Shown: piece by piece, positions 1-41,806 of the stretch | Position numbering within the stretch: the first letter of the stretch is position 1 | How the letters are laid out: each line of letters starts with the position of its first letter | IMG/VR virus record: IMGVR_UViG_2711768061_000003 | Span: 1-41,806 of that record | From: a virus | Lineage: Duplodnaviria > Heunggongvirae > Uroviricota > Caudoviricetes | Strand: one strand, 5' to 3' | DNA length: 41,806 nt | The notes under the pieces: model-generated | What the model saw: the letters and a program-made list of their open reading frames with translations, nothing else | The model's database searches: none | What the model was told of the DNA's origin: nothing | Made by a program: the position numbers and the translations under genes

Positions 1-1182
1 ATGCTCACCGTTAAGCAGATTGAAGCAGCAAAGCCGAAAGAAAAACCATACCGCCTTCTCGATGGTAATGGCCTGTACCTTTATGTCCCTGTATCAGGGA
101 AAAAGGTATGGCAGCTTCGCTACAAGATTGACGGTAAGGAGAAAATCCTGACCGTCGGAAAATATCCGCTTATGACTTTGCAGGAGGCAAGGGATAAAGC
201 ATGGACCGCGAGGAAAGACATCTCGGTTGGCATCGATCCGGTAAAAGCGAAAAAGGCTTCGTCTAACAACAATTCCTTTAGCGCCATTTACAAGGAATGG
301 TACGAGCACAAGAAGCAAGTCTGGTCAGTAGGCTATGCAAATGAACTTGCCAAAATGTTTGATGACGACATTTTACCCATCATCGGCGGTCTTGAGATTC
401 AGGATATTGAGCCGATGCAACTGTTGGAAGTAATCCGCAGATTTGAAGATCGCGGTGCAATGGAGCGAGCCAACAAAGCACGCAGAAGATGCGGCGAGGT
501 TTTCCGTTACGCTATTGTCACCGGAAGGGCTAAATATAACCCGGCACCTGACCTTGCTGACGCCATGAAGGGATACCGCAAGAAGAACTTCCCGTTTCTT
601 CCTGCAGACCAGATACCGGCATTCAATAAAGCACTGGCAACATTTTCAGGAAGTATCGTATCGCTCATTGCGACCAAAGTTTTACGCTACACAGCCCTAA
701 GAACGAAAGAGCTTCGTTCCATGCAATGGAAGAACGTCGATTTTGAAAACAGGATTATCACCATCGACGCCAATGTGATGAAGGGACGCAAAATTCATGT
801 GGTTCCTATGTCAGACCAGGTAGTTGAACTTCTCACTACGCTAAGCTCAATCACTAAACCAGTGTCAGAGTTTGTTTTTGCCGGGCGCAACGATAAGAAG
901 AAGCCAATCTGCGAGAACGCGGTATTACTTGTGATCAAACAAATCGGCTATGAGGGTCTGGAAAGCGGTCACGGATTCAGGCATGAATTCAGCACGATTA
1001 TGAACGAGAACGAATGGCCTGCTGATGCTATTGAAGTGCAACTGGCACATGCCAACGGCGGATCTGTGCGCGGTATTTACAACCACGCTCAGTATCTCGA
1101 TAAGCGCAGAGAAATGATGCAGTGGTGGGCGGACTGGCTTGATGGAGAGAAAAATAGCGCAACTTTTAGGCCACATCAATGA
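1..1182 (+). CDS. int: tyrosine integrase, P4/IntS family
   Basis: 393-aa ORF starting at window position 1; translation closely resembles E. coli CPS-53 IntS as recalled; C-terminal catalytic region with R...HxxR...Y-type motifs (HGFRHEF, YNHAQY). Confidence 0.95.
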   Translation: MLTVKQIEAAKPKEKPYRLLDGNGLYLYVPVSGKKVWQLRYKIDGKEKILTVGKYPLMTLQEARDKAWTARKDISVGIDPVKAKKASSNNNSFSAIYKEWYEHKKQVWSVGYANELAKMFDDDILPIIGGLEIQDIEPMQLLEVIRRFEDRGAMERANKARRRCGEVFRYAIVTGRAKYNPAPDLADAMKGYRKKNFPFLPADQIPAFNKALATFSGSIVSLIATKVLRYTALRTKELRSMQWKNVDFENRIITIDANVMKGRKIHVVPMSDQVVELLTTLSSITKPVSEFVFAGRNDKKKPICENAVLLVIKQIGYEGLESGHGFRHEFSTIMNENEWPADAIEVQLAHANGGSVRGIYNHAQYLDKRREMMQWWADWLDGEKNSATFRPHQ

Positions 1183-1354
1183 AATTGTTTTCCCATGCAT
1201 GAGCAAAAATTAGAATAACATTGCATAGTCACAGTATCGATCATGATTCACAGCAATGATAGAATACAAATAAATTTAACATGTTTCCACCGAAACAATC
1301 ACACATGTAGCATTCGTCTTTTTTTGATGTAATTAACATTAAATGGTATAACAT

Positions 1355-3142
1355 ATGGAACTGAAATACAGACCCGAAATTGATGGGTTGAGAACATTAG
1401 CTGTTTTACCTGTTATCTTTTTTCATGCAGGTGTTCAATGGATTCCTGGCGGCTTTCTTGGAGTAGATGTTTTTTTTGTTATTAGTGGTTTTTTAATTAC
1501 CAGCATTTTGCTGAAAGAATGCAGCAATAGAACATTTACATTCTCTGGGTTTTATGAGAGAAGGGTTCGTAGAATTGCGCCTGCATTAATTCTAATGACA
1601 TCAGTAATATTCATTATATCATTATTTATGATGGTTCCATATGACCTAAAGAATCTAGGCCAATCAGTTGTTGCAACAATTTTTTCAGCAAACAATATAT
1701 TATTGTACTTAACGTCAGGATATTGGTCTACAGCATCTGAATTTAAACCATTGTATCACACATGGAGTCTTGCTGTAGAAGAACAGTATTATCTTGTAGC
1801 CCCTGTAATAATATATATAATTTACTCAATAAATCATAATAAACTAATAAAGAATAGTTTTATGTTTTTACTGGTAATATCAATTGCCAGTTTTTTATAT
1901 GCAACAATTACAACAGTGCATAATATGGAGTTTTCATTTCTTATGCTCCCTTCAAGGGCGTGGGAGATTGCTCTTGGTGGGGTTGCCGCTATTGCGCACT
2001 ATAAAATAAAAATAAAAAGTAACATCTTATCATACCTTGGTTTTTTATTGATAATATCAAGTTACTTCCTTGTGAATGGTAAAAAATCACACCCTGGATT
2101 TGAAACATTATTTCCAGTTCTTGGTGCATGTTTGTTTTTAATGCATTCAAATGCATCTAAAGGAATTGGAAAGATCATGTCAATAAAACCAATTGTGTTA
2201 TGTGGCATGATAAGTTATTCGCTATACCTTTGGCATCAACCTGTTTTTGCATTTATAAGATTAAACTCAAAATTTGAACCGTCAACAACATATTTTATCG
2301 CATCCATTCCTTTAATTTTTATTATATCGTGGATGTCTTATGTTTTTGTAGAAAAACCATTCAGAAACAAGAGAAAAACATCTACAAAAAAAATCTTATC
2401 ATATACATTAGCATTTTCGTTGGTGTTATCAGCATCAGGAATTTTGATGCACAAAACATATGGATTGCAAAATGTCAGGCCTGATCTTGCATATGGAGGA
2501 AATCCACAGGAGTATGTGGATACCCCGAAGAAATTAAAGAATATTGAGTTCTCAGACAATGGAAAGAAAATATTAATCATGGGTAACTCATATGCGAGAG
2601 ATTTAATTAATGCAATATCTACAAAGATTAAAACAAATGATCTTAATATTGTATATTTTGAGGGTGGATGTGATTGGTCAATAGATAATAAAAATAAATT
2701 AGATTACTACTTGAATGACTCAGACATTATTTTATATTCGGAGAATTGGGGTGCAGGCGACTATAATAATAACGTTGAAAAGTTAAAACACTGTTACGAT
2801 TACATAAAGTCAAAAACAACTGCAAAAATGTACTTGATTGGCACAAAAAACTTCGGGTATAACAATAACTTTGCTGTTAACCTGTCTCTTAATGACAGAG
2901 TTTTAGCAAAAACATACCCGCTATCAAGATATATAGAGTTTAACAATAAGGCGAAAATGATTTTTGGCGATGACTACATAGATTTGTTTGACCTTATAAA
3001 AGACAACAATGGAATGGTTAGAGTTTTTGATGAGAATGGCAAATTTTTATCATATGATGCAAACCATCTAACGAAATATGGAGCAAGTTACATTGGAGAA
3101 GTCTTAGACAAAAAAACAGACTTACTTCAATCTTTGAAATAA
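1355..3142 (+). CDS. membrane O-acetyltransferase (acyltransferase-3 family N-terminal domain with SGNH-like C-terminal domain); likely O-antigen or polysaccharide modifying moron
   Basis: 595-aa ORF; N-terminal motifs typical of acyltransferase-3 (DGLRTLAVLPVIFFHAG, VDVFFVISGFLIT); multiple hydrophobic segments followed by a soluble C-terminal domain; markedly AT-rich versus neighbouring genes; sits in the int-tailspike moron slot. Confidence 0.8.
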   Translation: MELKYRPEIDGLRTLAVLPVIFFHAGVQWIPGGFLGVDVFFVISGFLITSILLKECSNRTFTFSGFYERRVRRIAPALILMTSVIFIISLFMMVPYDLKNLGQSVVATIFSANNILLYLTSGYWSTASEFKPLYHTWSLAVEEQYYLVAPVIIYIIYSINHNKLIKNSFMFLLVISIASFLYATITTVHNMEFSFLMLPSRAWEIALGGVAAIAHYKIKIKSNILSYLGFLLIISSYFLVNGKKSHPGFETLFPVLGACLFLMHSNASKGIGKIMSIKPIVLCGMISYSLYLWHQPVFAFIRLNSKFEPSTTYFIASIPLIFIISWMSYVFVEKPFRNKRKTSTKKILSYTLAFSLVLSASGILMHKTYGLQNVRPDLAYGGNPQEYVDTPKKLKNIEFSDNGKKILIMGNSYARDLINAISTKIKTNDLNIVYFEGGCDWSIDNKNKLDYYLNDSDIILYSENWGAGDYNNNVEKLKHCYDYIKSKTTAKMYLIGTKNFGYNNNFAVNLSLNDRVLAKTYPLSRYIEFNNKAKMIFGDDYIDLFDLIKDNNGMVRVFDENGKFLSYDANHLTKYGASYIGEVLDKKTDLLQSLK

Positions 3143-3175
3143 AATATATAATTTATTAGTCGCTCCCCAAAAAAT

Positions 3176-3203
3176 ATACCACCTCTTATGTTGAGGTGGT
3201 ATA
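3176..3203. terminator. putative bidirectional rho-independent terminator between convergent acetyltransferase and tailspike genes
   Basis: Inverted repeat ATACCACCTC-(8 nt)-GAGGTGGTAT flanked by A-run on one side and AT-rich sequence on the other. Confidence 0.5.
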
Positions 3204-3233
3204 TAGATAATAACTATAGACTATTGCGTTTGT

Positions 3234-5408
3234 TTATTTCTGCATCCTTTTTATCTCTCTACGCATATATGCAGCCTCAAGACAAAGTATTTCTTCGTAG
3301 CGTACAGTGTAACCTGAGTGAGCCTCCTGTGCAGCCTGAAGCAGCACCTTAGTGCCGTCGTCTAAAGTATCATACACCGCCTCTGTCGCGGGGGTATCAT
3401 CATAGCAAAGGATGCCGTACTCGAAAGGGTCCACTCCGTGGGCCTCAAATGCCGCCTTGATGTCTTGCGCGATAACCCCAATATGTCTCCGGGCTTTACT
3501 ACCTTTTTCTGCCACGCTTGCCTTTAATTTATAAGCCACATACTGGACGTCCCCCCAGGCGTCGAGAACAGCATCAGGTATTTGTGACTCTTCTGTTTTT
3601 GAGTTTCTGTCTGACGTGACCTGAAAAGCTGTTTGTGTATACCCACCTGACCATGCATATGCTGACGTTCCACATGTTTGAGCGTTCTGCCGACCAGGCC
3701 TAACATAATCTACGCCCCAAACAAGAACCGATGAATAGCCTATTTTCCAGTATGCTATTTTTGATACGCTATCAACTACTTGCTGCTGCTCATACAGGCC
3801 GTTTTTTGTGCGATAGGTCGTTGTTTGATAGCTTCTTGGAAGAAATTGAAGCCCCTGCGTACTTAAGCTCCTTATTGAATTTATAATATCAGGATTGGCG
3901 CCGCCTTGTGTTCTTGCAATAGTCATTCCGTCTGAACAAGCTGGGTGACCATATTTAAGACGAAGATTTTTTATCTCTGTAAGAGACTCTGCCCGGTTTG
4001 TATCGTCTCCTGATTTAAGCAAGTACCAACCAGCCACTGAGCTGTTATGCTCAACTAGGTTTTTAAACACGAATTTAGGGTCTGTGAAGTTTTCTGCGTA
4101 TTGCGGAGGATTCATAAGAACCAGCCCTTTAAACCCTGAATCGGTACGAGAGTTGTTAATGTGCAGCCCATCTATAATGATGTGGTCTGACTGGGTATTT
4201 TCGGTGCCGTCGGTTTTAAGATAAATCAGATTTTGGCCTTTAAAGTATTCAAACCAGCCATCGTTAATCTTAAAGTTAAAGAACTGTTGCAGATAGAAAA
4301 ACGCCCCGCCAAATACCTCGTTTTTCTCAAACCATGGGTTGTTTATGGTGAAGTTAAACCCACCTATAATACGGAAGAACATTCTGGCGCGAGCATCAAG
4401 GAAGATTGGGCTTTCCATGAAGTTTAAATTAAACGCTGCAAAAGGGTTGTTGTCATCCACAGGGGTATCAACAATGTAACCGGAGTCGTTAACCGTTTTG
4501 AAAATTGGGTTATAGTGGTAAACAGCAATCCATGACGCTTTCCATACAGTATGAAAGCCTTGCCATACACAGTTATGAGTGGTAAATGTTGCCACCCAAT
4601 TACCAGCGGCGGCTTCCATGAAAACGTTGGCGCTATTTAAAACATTAGAGCCATCGAAAATAATATTTTTAAAAGTGCAATACTGGAACTGATAAGGACC
4701 ATCTTGCGTGAACATAGTATACCCGCCAGATGATTTAATAGTGGCTTTCCCGTTAGGGCAGATGATATTGAAAGACTTCCAAGCCTCTGTATGTAAAGGT
4801 TTACTTGTCACGTAGACAAATCCAGCAGGAATTAACAATCCAGCATTAGCATTAAGCACAGAAATAACTTTGTCATCCACCTCTGGATTAGCTAAGCCAC
4901 TTATTGCCCCTAAATCTTGTATGGATAGCAGGTCAGAATTTTTATCATGCTGAGTCCTTCTTATTGCATCAAAAAAAGGCTGTTTAACGCCAATTAACGC
5001 ATCACCTTTACTTTCATCATCTAAATATTTACCCGTTTGGGCAAGCTGATTAACGATGTCAATACTGAATTTGTCGGGGTCATATTTCAGTACATTATGG
5101 AAATAGAACTGCTGCGCACCATACGCATCATAAACAGCCATAGAATGGCCTTGTACAGTTACGAATTTGGCAATCTGTCCGTTATATACTGGGTAACCAG
5201 CAGCGTTAATGATGATTGGTTGCGAAACAGGAACGTGAGAACCGTCTTCGTTCTCCACATAAACCTGAATCTGGTTTTCAGGATTTACCGGGTCAGTGTC
5301 AATTTTACCGATATAAATTTTGCCATTGGCTACGGCTTTAAAAGAACGAGCCATAGTGAAGAGTTGCGAAGGCATCGATACGATCACATTGGCTGTAATG
5401 TCTGTCAT
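3234..5408 (-). CDS. tailspike protein: P22-gp9-like N-terminal head-binding domain, divergent central receptor-binding domain, C-terminal intramolecular chaperone (S74-like) domain
   Basis: 724-aa ORF; first ~110 aa ([11 protein letters not shown]...[21 protein letters not shown]...VLKYDPD) match the P22 tailspike N-terminus as recalled; C-terminus contains [26 protein letters not shown], resembling auto-cleaving chaperone domains of endosialidase/tail fibre proteins. Confidence 0.9.
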
Positions 5409-5465
5409 TTAATTTGCTCCAGATACAATGAATCGCCGCAGCATGGCTACGGTGAATTTTGGGCA

Positions 5466-6432: not shown

Positions 6433-6500
6433 GTCGTTAATTCCTATGCGTGGTTTTACGATATCGAAGCCCTGACTGTTCCCGCAGTTGGGGCTTCAAC
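6420..6500 (+). ncRNA. putative sar-like antisense RNA covering the ant ribosome-binding site (approximate bounds)
   Basis: Inference from P22 immI biology; strong hairpin at ~6465-6497 in the arc-ant intergenic region on the strand opposite to ant. No promoter verified. Confidence 0.3.
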
Positions 6501-6501
6501 T

Positions 6502-6753: not shown

Positions 6754-7008
6754 ATGGCTAGAGATGATCCGCACTTTAACTTCCGCATGCCTTTGGAAGT
6801 AAGAGAAAAATTAAAATACAGAGCAGAGTCAAATGGTAGATCAATGAACTCAGAATTGTTGCAAATCGTCCAAGATGCTCTATCGAGACCATCTCCTGTA
6901 AAAGGTTATCGCAATGAAGCTGAACGATTAGCCGAGATGCAGGCTGAACAGTTCAAGTCTGTGGTATTTGAGACACTTAAAAACATGTATGGCAAGGATG
7001 CAAAATGA
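6754..7008 (+). CDS. mnt: Mnt repressor
   Basis: 84-aa product MARDDPHFNFRMPLEVREKLKYRAESNGRSMNSELLQIVQDAL..., closely resembling P22 Mnt as recalled; it is the C-terminal part of the 6358-7008 track ORF, whose upstream portion is antisense to ant. Confidence 0.9.
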   Translation: MARDDPHFNFRMPLEVREKLKYRAESNGRSMNSELLQIVQDALSRPSPVKGYRNEAERLAEMQAEQFKSVVFETLKNMYGKDAK

Positions 7009-7586
7009 TCGATTACAACCCAGCAAAAAAAGAAATCATCGCAGCTAAAAAGTGCCTAGAGCAGATGAAATCATCTACAAACCATGATGATTTTGAAATG
7101 CACTGGCGAGAATGTCTTGGGCATATAGAAAAGTCTTTCAGTAAGTTGCTCTGTGCAACAAAGCCGGTTAGTGGAAAATTTAGCAGCCACTTCAACCAAA
7201 AGTTCATGCTTAGAAAAACAGACAAAACACTTGCTTACCTTCACCAAGCAAGAAATGCTGATCATCATTCCACTATGGAAATCTCAAAACTTGAACCTCC
7301 TTATACTACTCTTGGGGCATTTCCGGGAGCAAGAAGCCATTATATTAAAGAGTTAATCATTGATTCAACAGGGAAAATAGCAAAATACGAAGGCGACCCT
7401 ATGATAGTTGAGTTTCATCCAGCAACAACTATGCCTATAACCGTAAGAAACCAAGGCAAAGATTATCCACCTCCAACAGAACATCTTGGCGAAAAGCTTG
7501 TTGATATACATCCATCTGTTCTTGCCTATCTCGGTATACAATTTTATGAAAAATGGATAGATGAGTCGTGTGCAACGTTTAGATAG
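7005..7586 (+). CDS. hypothetical protein, translationally coupled to mnt (ATGA overlap)
   Basis: 193-aa ORF; its ATG overlaps the mnt stop codon; AT-rich; no hydrophobic segments; no motif recognised. Confidence 0.6.
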   Translation: MIDYNPAKKEIIAAKKCLEQMKSSTNHDDFEMHWRECLGHIEKSFSKLLCATKPVSGKFSSHFNQKFMLRKTDKTLAYLHQARNADHHSTMEISKLEPPYTTLGAFPGARSHYIKELIIDSTGKIAKYEGDPMIVEFHPATTMPITVRNQGKDYPPPTEHLGEKLVDIHPSVLAYLGIQFYEKWIDESCATFR

Positions 7587-7803: not shown

Positions 7804-8298
7804 GTGTCTGATTCTATGAGTTACGCTGTGCTAGTTGCCGCAACTCTATTTCTGGGGATAGGGTTGCAGATTGCGTGGTTCTTTTTTTCTAGTTTTATTA
7901 AACGTAAAAGAATTGAATCAAGGATATCTGAGATTTCTATTGCTATAGGGAAAAATGCTGAAAATCCAGAGAATGAGGCCTACGCACTGAATTACCTTAA
8001 AGAAAAGTTTTCCCCTGAAAAATTTGAAAACAGAATTACTGATGCTCTTGGATTGGTAATATCAGTAATTCATATGCCACTAAGTTTGCTGATAACAGTG
8101 TGGTACTTCGCCATGATCGCCGGAAGAATATTTGGTTTCATGAATATAGAGCCTGTAGTTCTTTGGGTTCCAATGATACTGCAATTGTTGTTAAGCGTTG
8201 CTATCTTTATTTTTTCTGTTTTTATAAAAATTGTCTTCGGAAGATACCCCGGAGAAGCGAAGGGATTTAATAAAGAATTCATAAAAACTATAAAATAA
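7804..8298 (+). CDS. small inner-membrane protein, possible SieA-like superinfection exclusion protein
   Basis: ORF with 3-4 predicted hydrophobic helices ([54 protein letters not shown]); GTG at 7804 is preceded by AAGAGG with 5-nt spacing (alternative ATG at 7816); occupies the slot between mnt and the gp16-like gene where P22 carries sieA. Confidence 0.55.
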
Positions 8299-33180: not shown

Positions 33181-33720
33181 CTAAATTAGCTCATCAGCTT
33201 TACCAGCAAAGCGCATATAACACTCATGGAACCAGACGTCAGGTATAACAAATTTCTCTTTACCTGACGCGCTGTAAGTCACACCTGAGCGATGGAGAAG
33301 GCCTTTTCTCATAAGAGATAAAGCGACCGGATCGCCGTGCTTAAGTACGATTTTGTTATTTGCCATAACAGCAAATGCTAAAACCTCTTTTTCCTGAATA
33401 CTCAGAGAATTGAACAGGCGCTCAGTCTCCACAATTACTTTAGCCTCATCTCTCTTACTGAGATATTTTTTATATCTGTCTGAAGATGCCAGAAATATAA
33501 ACTCCATCACCCTGTTCAGAACATAACTGATACACAAAAGCATTGCGTAATACATCCAGTGATCTGGAAGTATTTCTGGGTTCCTTATATCTACCCACTC
33601 TTTAATTGATGCAGGGGTGATTATTATCAAGGCAATTAAAATAATAAGCATATGAATTAACTGTTGTAGCGTAAGACCACGCAGGAAGAAACGTAATAGT
33701 TCCTGCCACCAGTTACTCAT
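33181..33720 (-). CDS. sieB: superinfection exclusion protein B (SieB-like), membrane protein
   Basis: 179-aa ORF with two N-terminal hydrophobic helices, located antisense within the PL operon next to the N-like gene. Confidence 0.65.
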   Translation of the reverse strand: MSNWWQELLRFFLRGLTLQQLIHMLIILIALIIITPASIKEWVDIRNPEILPDHWMYYAMLLCISYVLNRVMEFIFLASSDRYKKYLSKRDEAKVIVETERLFNSLSIQEKEVLAFAVMANNKIVLKHGDPVALSLMRKGLLHRSGVTYSASGKEKFVIPDVWFHECYMRFAGKADELI

Positions 33721-39785: not shown

Positions 39786-39828
39786 TACCTGATTTGCAGG
39801 TTCGATTCCCTATTCGGAGATAGCACTC

Positions 39829-40029
39829 ATGCAACACGAACTACAGCCTGATTCCCTGGTTGATTTGAAATTCATCATGGCTGATACTGGCTTTGGTAAA
39901 ACCTTCATCTACGACCGGATTAAGTCCGGCGACCTGCCAAAAGCCAAAGTTATCCACGGACGAGCAAGATGGTTATATCGTGACCATTGTGAATTCAAAA
40001 ATAAGCTCTTAAGCCGCGCCAATGGGTAA
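39829..40029 (+). CDS. xis: excisionase/regulator, AlpA family (MerR-like HTH)
   Basis: 66-aa ORF with AlpA-type HTH (DLKFIMADTGFGKTFIYDRIKSGDLPKA); last phage gene before attR; AlpA-type excisionases typically pair with P4-family integrases. Confidence 0.7.
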   Translation: MQHELQPDSLVDLKFIMADTGFGKTFIYDRIKSGDLPKAKVIHGRARWLYRDHCEFKNKLLSRANG

Positions 40030-40558: not shown

Positions 40559-41806
40559 CTATATTGCTGAAGGTACAGGCGTTTCCATAACTATTTGCTC
40601 GCGTTTTTTACTCAAGAAGAAAATGCCAAATAGCAACATCAGGCAGACAATACCCGAAATTGCGAAGAAAACTGTCTGGTAGCCTGCGTGGTCAAAGAGT
40701 ATCCCAGTCGGCGTTGAAAGCAGCACAATCCCAAGCGAACTGGCAATTTGAAAACCAATCAGAAAGATCGTCGACGACAGGCGCTTATCAAAGTTTGCCA
40801 CGCTGTATTTGAAGACGGATATGACACAAAGTGGAACCTCAATGGCATGTAACAACTTCACTAATGAAATAATCCAGGGGTTAACGAACAGCGCGCAGGA
40901 AAGGATACGCAACGCCATAATCACAACTCCGATAAGTAATGCATTTTTTGGCCCTACCCGATTCACAAAGAAAGGAATAATCGCCATGCACAGCGCTTCG
41001 AGTACCACCTGGAATGAGTTGAGATAACCATACAGGCGCGTTCCTACATCGTGTGATTCGAATAAACCTGCATAAAAGACAGGAAAAAGTTGTTGATCAA
41101 AAATGTTATAGAAAGACCACGTCCCCACAATAAATATGACGAAAACCCAGAAGTTTCGATCCTTGAAAACTGCGATAAAATCCTCTTTTTTTACCCCTCC
41201 CGCATCTGCCGCTACGCACTGGTGATCCTTATCTTTAAAACGCATGTTGATCATCATAAATACAGCGCCAAATAGCGAGACCAACCAGAAGTTGATATGG
41301 GGACTGATACTAAAAAATATGCCGGCAAAGAACGCGCCAATAGCATAGCCAAAAGATCCCCAGGCGCGCGCTGTTCCATATTCGAAATGAAAATTTCGCG
41401 CCATTTTTTCGGTGAAGCTATCAAGCAAACCGCATCCCGCCAGATACCCCAAGCCAAAAAATAGCGCCCCCAGAATTAGACCTACAGAAAAATTGCTTTG
41501 CAGTAACGGTTCATAAACGTAAATCATAAACGGTCCGGTCAAGACCAGGATGAAACTCATACACCAGATGAGCGGTTTCTTCAGACCGAGTTTATCCTGA
41601 ACGATGCCGTAGAACATCATAAATAGAATGCTGGTAAACTGGTTGACCGAATAAAGTGTACCTAATTCCGTCCCTGTCAACCCTAGATGTCCTTTCAGCC
41701 AAATAGCGTATAACGACCACCACAGCGACCAGGAAATAAAAAAGAGAAATGAGTAACTGGATGCAAAACGATAGTACGCATTTCTGAATGGAATATTCAG
41801 TGCCAT
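40559..41806 (-). CDS. cscB: LacY-family oligosaccharide:H+ symporter, sucrose permease CscB-like (host gene)
   Basis: 415-aa 12-TM protein with LacY-family sequence pattern; start codon at the window edge (41806); the csc locus is known to lie near argW in sucrose-positive E. coli. Confidence 0.8.
   Translation of the reverse strand: MALNIPFRNAYYRFASSYSFLFFISWSLWWSLYAIWLKGHLGLTGTELGTLYSVNQFTSILFMMFYGIVQDKLGLKKPLIWCMSFILVLTGPFMIYVYEPLLQSNFSVGLILGALFFGLGYLAGCGLLDSFTEKMARNFHFEYGTARAWGSFGYAIGAFFAGIFFSISPHINFWLVSLFGAVFMMINMRFKDKDHQCVAADAGGVKKEDFIAVFKDRNFWVFVIFIVGTWSFYNIFDQQLFPVFYAGLFESHDVGTRLYGYLNSFQVVLEALCMAIIPFFVNRVGPKNALLIGVVIMALRILSCALFVNPWIISLVKLLHAIEVPLCVISVFKYSVANFDKRLSSTIFLIGFQIASSLGIVLLSTPTGILFDHAGYQTVFFAISGIVCLMLLFGIFFLSKKREQIVMETPVPSAI

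Follow-up and report, generated by a model that had tools for sequence, protein, structure and literature searches.

A candidate lysogenic-conversion O-acetyltransferase of the OafA/OafB type in a P22-like prophage at argW of Escherichia coli

We analyzed a 41,806-nucleotide stretch of a Caudoviricetes genome (IMG/VR record IMGVR_UViG_2711768061_000003; the whole stretch is hereafter the window), which is a prophage integrated at argW of Escherichia coli, and describe the gene that lies between its integrase gene (int) and its tailspike gene. Our preferred reading, to which we assign a probability of about 0.7, is that this acetyltransferase gene encodes a functional inner-membrane O-acetyltransferase of the OafA/OafB type and serves the P22-like prophage as a lysogenic-conversion gene, most probably with the O-antigen as acceptor, protecting the lysogen and altering its serotype. 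Judged from its sequence, the product is well supported as an O-acetyltransferase of this type, in which an acyltransferase-3 (AT3) domain is fused to an SGNH domain. We infer acetyl as the acyl group, O-antigen as the acceptor and, by analogy with BTP1 and Sf6, an effect on phage adsorption and serotype. The foreign guanine-plus-cytosine (GC) content of the gene, its sharp mosaic boundaries and its position between int and the tailspike gene support its classification as a moron.

The protein has the domains and catalytic residues of AT3-SGNH acetyltransferases

The sequence-only reading of this stretch had described a 595-amino-acid (aa) protein with an acyltransferase-3 and a C-terminal SGNH-like domain, and Pfam recovered both domains above their cut-offs. 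Acyl_transf_3 (PF01757) matches residues 7-329 (E = 2e-29, 103 bits versus a cut-off of 31) and the AT3-associated SGNH domain (PF19040) matches residues 399-585 (E = 5e-12, 46 bits versus a cut-off of 27). The topology is that of AT3-SGNH fusions: the 10 helices of the AT3 domain are followed by an eleventh and then by a structured linker that leads to the periplasmic SGNH domain. Over its full length the protein matches PHROG 6705, annotated as 'O-antigen acetylase' in the category moron (E = 2.5e-135). Proteins annotated as O-antigen acetylases in Pseudomonas phages and in P22-like phages of Salmonella (BTP1 GtrC, g341c, SPC32H) share 31-37% identity with it over 72-99% of its length. A fold search returned OafB, an enzyme acting on lipopolysaccharide (LPS), as the closest structural relative of the SGNH domain. 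The profile that reached OafB was built without the BTP1 GtrC row, because a profile with that row is biased. A match to NCBIfam SucT (125 bits versus a cut-off of 1275) was dismissed as generic AT3 similarity, and the PADLOC defence models gave no match.

Motifs that define AT3-SGNH proteins have been described (R/K-X10-H, RXXR and a GG-F/Y-XGV-D/P/V loop specific to fused proteins; PMC7448272). The AT3 domain contains R13-X10-H24, the fused-protein-specific loop as GGFLGVD (residues 32-38), FFVISG (40-45), RRVRR (69-73), which supplies R69-R73 for RXXR, and SANN (111-114). The predicted catalytic residues of the SGNH domain are Ser412 in a GNS block (nucleotides 2588-2590), Asp568 (3056-3058) and His571 (3065-3067); S412 and the D568-A-N-H571 stretch align with the GDS and DWGH blocks of OafB (PDB 6SE1). 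In alignments of about 53-55 homologues that are 38-82% identical to the window protein, R13, H24, G32-D38, F40/S44/G45, R70/R72/R73, N113/N114, Y123, S412, D568 and H571 are invariant or nearly so, and H24, R70, R73, G32, G33, G36, V37, D38, S412, D568 and H571 are fully invariant.

Many of these positions have counterparts in Salmonella OafA (R14, H25, G33-D39, R69/R72, S112/N113, S412, D587 and H590). Mutation of OafA R14, H25, G34, D39, R69, R72, S112, S412 or H590 abolished O-antigen acetylation, mutation of F35 or D587 reduced it, and G33, G37, V38 and N113 mutants retained wild-type activity (PMC7448272).

The gene is AT-rich, intact and under purifying selection

The gene had been singled out as far more AT-rich than the phage backbone, and its composition bears this out. 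Its GC content is 0.317, against 0.471 in the rest of the window, and its GC content at third codon positions (GC3) is 0.277, whereas the neighbouring int has a GC content of 0.473 and a GC3 of 0.52. The lowest-GC stretch of 1788 nucleotides in the window is the gene itself (z = -4.6 versus windows elsewhere), and at about nucleotide 1200 the GC content falls from 0.45-0.52 to 0.31.

At this composition, stop codons are expected at ~8% of codons, and an open frame of 595 codons would arise by chance with a probability of ~2e-22. Comparison with an allele that is 82% identical (allele B; the window and its 99% lineage carry allele A) gave a ratio of nonsynonymous to synonymous divergence (dN/dS) of 0.14 at a dS of 0.78, which indicates purifying selection. 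Disruption of the gene in related genomes had been named in advance as an outcome that would count against the first reading. The gene is not a pseudogene; it is intact here and in most relatives, with a nonsense codon in one relative only.

Three homopolymer tracts are possible frameshift hot spots. A T8 tract at 1470-1477 covers codons 39-42 (the DVFFV motif) and is also T8 in allele B, an A8 tract at 2386-2393 (gene position 1032) corresponds to A7 at gene position 1018 of allele B, and a T7 tract lies at 1319-1325 in the 5' untranslated region. We found no evidence of length variation of these tracts among relatives.

The gene fills the conversion slot between int and the tailspike gene

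The position between int and tailspike was already recognized from the sequence alone; the tailspike gene, which carries a P22 head-binding domain, is convergent with the acetyltransferase gene and is followed by ant. The int gene is 97% identical at the nucleotide level to the int of Sf6 and of CUS-3 over positions 1-1144, and homology ends at 1144. Relative to Sf6, CUS-3 and two related loci (L001 and L002), pairwise BLAST places the edges of the acetyltransferase module at nucleotides 1144/1145 and 3142/3143. Positions 3143-5073 form a separate module that consists of a hairpin and the receptor-binding part of the tailspike gene, and homology returns at 5074, within the head-binding domain. 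The gene thus has the marks of an accessory-slot conversion moron of P22-like phages, namely the int-tailspike position, foreign composition and sharp mosaic edges.

The proposed equivalence with known conversion slots was confirmed on annotated records. The order is int-oac-tailspike in Sf6, int-neuO-endosialidase in CUS-3 and int-(attP)-gtrA-gtrC-tailspike in BTP1. A GtrABC cassette (gtrA flippase, gtrB, gtrC) is not present in the window; the slot holds a single gene, with no other sense-strand open reading frame (ORF) of at least 50 aa between int and the tailspike gene.

Relatives occur in Escherichia prophages, some of them decayed

All of the closest relatives are genes of Escherichia prophages that bear no annotation beyond 'acyltransferase family protein'. 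A cluster at 99% identity comprises 40 sequences from E. coli and E. marmotae, the cluster at 82% comprises 26 sequences, and most of these are full length; further homologues lie at 60% (L008) and 50% (L010). A megablast search with the gene gave no DNA-level match in the INPHARED phage collection (50,697 phage records), and every protein match there was below 60% identity (28-37% among the matches listed). All known members of the lineage thus come from E. coli and E. marmotae genomes, where they lie in prophages that have not been annotated.

The 99% lineage matches the window at 99.4% identity across the acetyltransferase module and the intergenic regions on either side of the gene, compared with 96.9% for int and 89.6% for the tailspike gene. 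Relatives of window positions 1-5423 in this lineage (L013-L020) have a W289* nonsense codon in the tailspike gene in every place shown, with int and the acetyltransferase gene intact. In one assembly (L016) an insertion sequence (IS) element replaces all of the prophage beyond the tailspike remnant and is followed by dsdX/dsdA-like genes, and int and the acetyltransferase gene are again intact. Retention of the gene beside a decayed tailspike gene or prophage fits a host benefit that is independent of phage viability.

The two distant homologues are also AT-richer than their flanks (0.36 versus 0.48-0.52 in L008, 0.31 versus 0.41-0.44 in L010). Low GC content therefore seems to be a trait of the mobile gene lineage and indicates no particular donor.

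The tailspike module is shared with unrelated phages

The tailspike had been described as one of novel specificity. As far as the databases go this claim does not hold, as they already contain its receptor-binding module: residues 131-723 share 86-88% amino-acid identity with tail fibres of two other phages, Shigella phage DS8 (gp20) and Escherichia phage HK2. The former, a siphovirus (Deseoctovirus), was grown on S. flexneri ATCC 29903 and the latter is an N4-like Gamaleyavirus, so that one receptor-binding and chaperone module (3234-5073, tailspike residues ~113-724) serves three unrelated virion types. Sequence matches of the tailspike in the PDB were confined to the N-terminal domains of the Sf6 and P22 tailspikes, and the receptor-binding part was not found in 5,426 complete E. 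coli genomes in either near or distant mode. We found no receptor information in the DS8 literature and no link to the acetyltransferase gene in a review of E. coli O-antigens.

The alleles of the acetyltransferase gene are associated with different tailspikes. Allele A always lies beside the window-type receptor-binding family, and allele B and the 60% allele lie beside another family that is unrelated to the first and shows 65-78% identity among its own members. The 99%, 82% and 60% alleles are all convergent with a tailspike gene; the 50% homologue is at the edge of a different prophage, with lysis genes between it and a tail-fibre-like gene. When allele A is compared with allele B, identity is 92-97% over the upstream region and the gene's first 450 nucleotides and 74-76% over the SGNH part. 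The divergence runs on into the unrelated receptor-binding domain, and identity returns at the head-binding domain. Because the divergence of the SGNH part lies next to the tailspike gene, the divergent block is contiguous with the swapped receptor-binding domain.

This arrangement hints that the enzyme and the tailspike may have matching specificities. One may go further and propose that the acetyltransferase gene and the receptor-binding domain form a co-adapted 'recognise-and-modify' cassette, swapped as a unit between conserved recombination arms so that the half of the enzyme that sets acceptor specificity would move along with the receptor-binding half of the tailspike, and that the enzyme later outlives the phage as a domesticated serotype determinant. 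We regard this proposal as tentative and on balance doubtful.

Proposed mechanism and alternative explanations

In the mechanism that we propose, modelled on OafA and OafB, the 10-helix AT3 domain would take acetyl from cytoplasmic acetyl-CoA and move it across the membrane by means of R13/H24, the GGFLGVD loop and RRVRR, and the eleventh helix and structured linker would hold the SGNH domain in the periplasm. There the predicted Ser412-Asp568-His571 triad would acetylate a surface polysaccharide, most probably the O-antigen, at a sugar hydroxyl. Once acetylated, the glycan would be a poorer substrate or receptor both for the tailspike of the phage itself and for any other phage that has this receptor-binding module. 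As a result, the lysogen would be shielded from superinfection, its O-antigen would be shielded from tailspike freed by spontaneous induction, and a serological epitope would be altered. We assume that the gene is expressed in the lysogen.

Several observations weigh against this reading. A phmmer search of the whole protein against the PDB gave no match, OafB was reached solely by profile and fold searches, and identity to characterized enzymes is only ~31%. A promoter scan of the upstream region was at chance level (11 sites versus 13 expected), and the ribosome-binding site is weak, with no clear Shine-Dalgarno sequence. One allele-B copy is a pseudogene with a nonsense codon at position 515, which means that the gene is dispensable. 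The co-occurrence of alleles and tailspikes could come from physical linkage alone. Finally, the chaperone at the C-terminus of the tailspike is of the Peptidase_S74 kind, which capsule depolymerases, among them the endosialidases of CUS-3 and K1F, typically carry.

This last point bears on the identity of the acceptor. The same enzyme and mechanism could act on a capsular (K-antigen) or other exopolysaccharide, as in the NeuO/K1 capsule/endosialidase system of CUS-3, which has the same backbone and uses the same slot; AT3 enzymes also acetylate capsules (PMC9558356). Even so, S74 chaperones are also found on fibres that are not capsule specific, for instance the L-shaped tail fibre of T5 (4UW8). 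The O-antigen is favoured because the SGNH domain is closest to that of OafB, an LPS enzyme, because the best phage family is one of O-antigen acetylases, and because DS8 uses the same receptor-binding module on S. flexneri. S. flexneri is not known to have a K-type capsule. We therefore consider a capsular acceptor unlikely, though it is the strongest of the alternatives.

A further explanation is that the gene is a decaying passenger without current function, unexpressed or inactive. The nonsense codon in the one allele-B copy and the lack of a clear promoter or Shine-Dalgarno sequence would agree with this, as would the equivalent slot of phage Kapi1, which retains just an apparent 34-codon C-terminal remnant of such a gene. 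Set against these points are the 595 open codons where ~8% of random codons would be stops, the dN/dS of 0.14, the retention of all catalytic residues, the 95-99% conservation of the upstream region, and the integrity of the gene even where the tailspike gene or all of the late region of the prophage has decayed; decay of the gene itself is in our judgement very improbable. Equally slim are the chances of an OatA-like peptidoglycan O-acetyltransferase, or of an acyltransferase for another envelope glycan (enterobacterial common antigen, periplasmic glucans), with an acceptor unrelated to the tailspike receptor.

Upstream region, regulation and termination

Conservation between alleles is 95-99% in the 170 nucleotides upstream of the gene, where inspection by eye picked out TGATAGAAT at 1257-1265 as a candidate for an extended -10 element. 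Paired GATC sites for control of the Dam/OxyR type were not found; a single GATC lies at 1239, between int and the start codon, and phase variation of the Dam/OxyR gtr type was dismissed on this ground. Phase variation of the NeuO type was also dismissed, as the gene holds no heptanucleotide tandem repeat of the NeuO type and the encoded domains are AT3 and SGNH. Neither known phase-variation mechanism is therefore indicated. The hairpin between the convergent genes (Table 1) has a T-run only on the minus strand, that of the tailspike gene, and we therefore assign it to the tailspike gene as its terminator; it may also stop the acetyltransferase transcript.

Features of the window and prophage context

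The coordinates of the features are collected in Table 1. The backbone of the window is that of a P22-like phage (Lederbergvirus) of the Sf6, CUS-3, HK620 and N7 group. The exact window protein is encoded in E. coli assemblies beside yfdC and argW, and an attL core matching the attR core of the window is found in argW, just upstream of the window start. Beyond attR, the second att-like remnant was probably left by an element that had occupied argW before, and the LacY-family permease gene is probably cscB.

Table 1. Coordinates of the acetyltransferase gene, its domains and other features of the window
Feature	Coordinates	Strand	Basis or remarks
IntS-like tyrosine integrase	1..1182	+	393 aa; left border of the slot; Pfam Phage_integrase, Phage_int_M, Arm-DNA-bind_3
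Start of AT-rich module and upstream non-coding region	1145..1354	+	95-99% conserved between alleles; compared with L001, L002 and L013
Acetyltransferase gene	1355..3142	+	ATG start; 595 aa; a single long frame in the ORF list
AT3 transmembrane acyltransferase domain	1373..2341	+	residues 7-329
Eleventh transmembrane helix, linker helix and periplasmic SGNH domain	2384..3139	+	helix residues 344-367; linker helix residues 384-394
Hairpin between convergent genes	3174..3204	-	12-bp stem; terminator scan and the sequence itself
Tailspike	3234..5408	-	724 aa; Pfam
Tailspike C-terminal Peptidase_S74 intramolecular chaperone	3435-3614	-	residues 599-658
Tailspike P22 head-binding domain	5070-5408	-	residues 1-113
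attR core TTGCAGGTTCGATTCC, right end of prophage	39794..39809	+	identical to annotated CUS-3 attL core and to L003:8456-8471 (beside yfdC)
AlpA-like ORF	39829-40029		66 aa; beyond attR
Second att-like remnant CTGCAGGGGACACCA	40103		
Host LacY-family permease gene	40559-41806	-	

The immI region of the prophage contains the sar antisense RNA of P22 at 6434-6501 on the plus strand (Rfam RF00262, 81.8 bits). An orphan ORF of 193 aa at 7005-7586 on the plus strand (GC ~0.39) lies between an mnt-like gene and sieA; it matches PHROG 23516 (function unknown) only, without a Pfam or PADLOC match, and may be another moron or an exclusion gene. A sieA homologue is located at 7804-8298 on the plus strand. 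Its SIEA domain comes from the precomputed Pfam annotation of an identical locus (L003), and a direct Pfam scan gave no match. A SieB-family protein is encoded at 33181-33720 on the minus strand. With the sieA homologue and the SieB-family protein, the prophage therefore has several superinfection-exclusion functions besides the acetyltransferase.

Significance

If the gene is active, it would add an O-acetyl epitope to a surface polysaccharide of its E. coli and E. marmotae carriers. This would have consequences for serotyping, for recognition by antibodies and for sensitivity to any phage that shares the receptor-binding module, among them the lytic DS8 and HK2, which are possible therapy candidates. 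OafB-like two-domain acetyltransferases, so far studied in Salmonella phages, also fill the conversion slot of argW-integrating P22-like coliphages. The principle is already well established by Sf6 oac, BTP1 gtrC/oafB, phiV10 oac and CUS-3 neuO. What is new here is a lineage without a close relative among sequenced phage isolates (no DNA match, and at most 37% protein identity among the matches listed) that is only generically annotated. Beyond this, two points are mildly unusual, namely that the acceptor-facing half of the enzyme appears to co-vary with the receptor-binding domain, and that the gene persists in prophages that are otherwise decaying.

Comparison with known systems

One of the closest known systems is GtrC of BTP1, or OafB, an AT3-SGNH enzyme that O-acetylates O-antigen rhamnose and is known from the Salmonella P22-like prophage BTP1 and from S. 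Paratyphi A (PDB 6SE1). In BTP1 this enzyme is both required and sufficient to protect against the phage, and it stops the phage's own tailspike from shortening the O-antigen (PMC4413052). The window protein is ~31% identical to it and differs in having GNS instead of GDS in block I. Its gene has no gtrA remnant upstream; further differences are the host (E. coli or E. marmotae), the attachment site (argW) and an unrelated tailspike.

OafA is the abequose O-acetyltransferase of Salmonella Typhimurium responsible for the O:5 factor. Equivalents of all its activity-affecting residues (R14, H25, G34, F35, D39, R69/R72, S112, S412, D587 and H590) are present in the window protein. Unlike the window gene, oafA is chromosomal and does not lie beside a tailspike gene, and sequence identity between the two proteins is presumably low.

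Sf6 Oac blocks the phage's own endorhamnosidase tailspike (PMC9558356). It resembles the window gene in its int-oac-tailspike slot, its close backbone, its nature as an AT-rich moron, and its AT3 domain with RXXR. Unlike the window protein, it is an AT3-only protein of 333 aa without SGNH, and there is no nucleotide homology to Sf6, including oac, in 1145-3142. Membership of the Sf6 Oac type (AT3 only, ~330 aa) was ruled out, as the window protein has 595 aa and an SGNH domain.

The CUS-3 system shares with the window the backbone, the argW attachment core and a slot beside a tailspike with an S74 chaperone. We propose that it also shares the logic of acetylating the glycan that the tailspike recognizes. 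NeuO is a soluble hexapeptide-repeat acetyltransferase and is phase variable through AAGACTC heptanucleotide repeats; neither such repeats nor the NeuO domain were found in the window gene.

Kapi1 also integrates at argW and has been reported to alter the O-antigen of its host. Between its tailspike and integrase genes, Kapi1_068 (L021:9983-10087) encodes a 34-aa 'hypothetical protein' whose ...YTDNKHLTK... segment corresponds to the DxxH block. The Kapi1 authors tested Kapi1_068 as a seroconversion candidate and LPS was unchanged; judged by its sequence, Kapi1_068 appears to be what is left of the C-terminus of another, distinct AT3-SGNH acetyltransferase.

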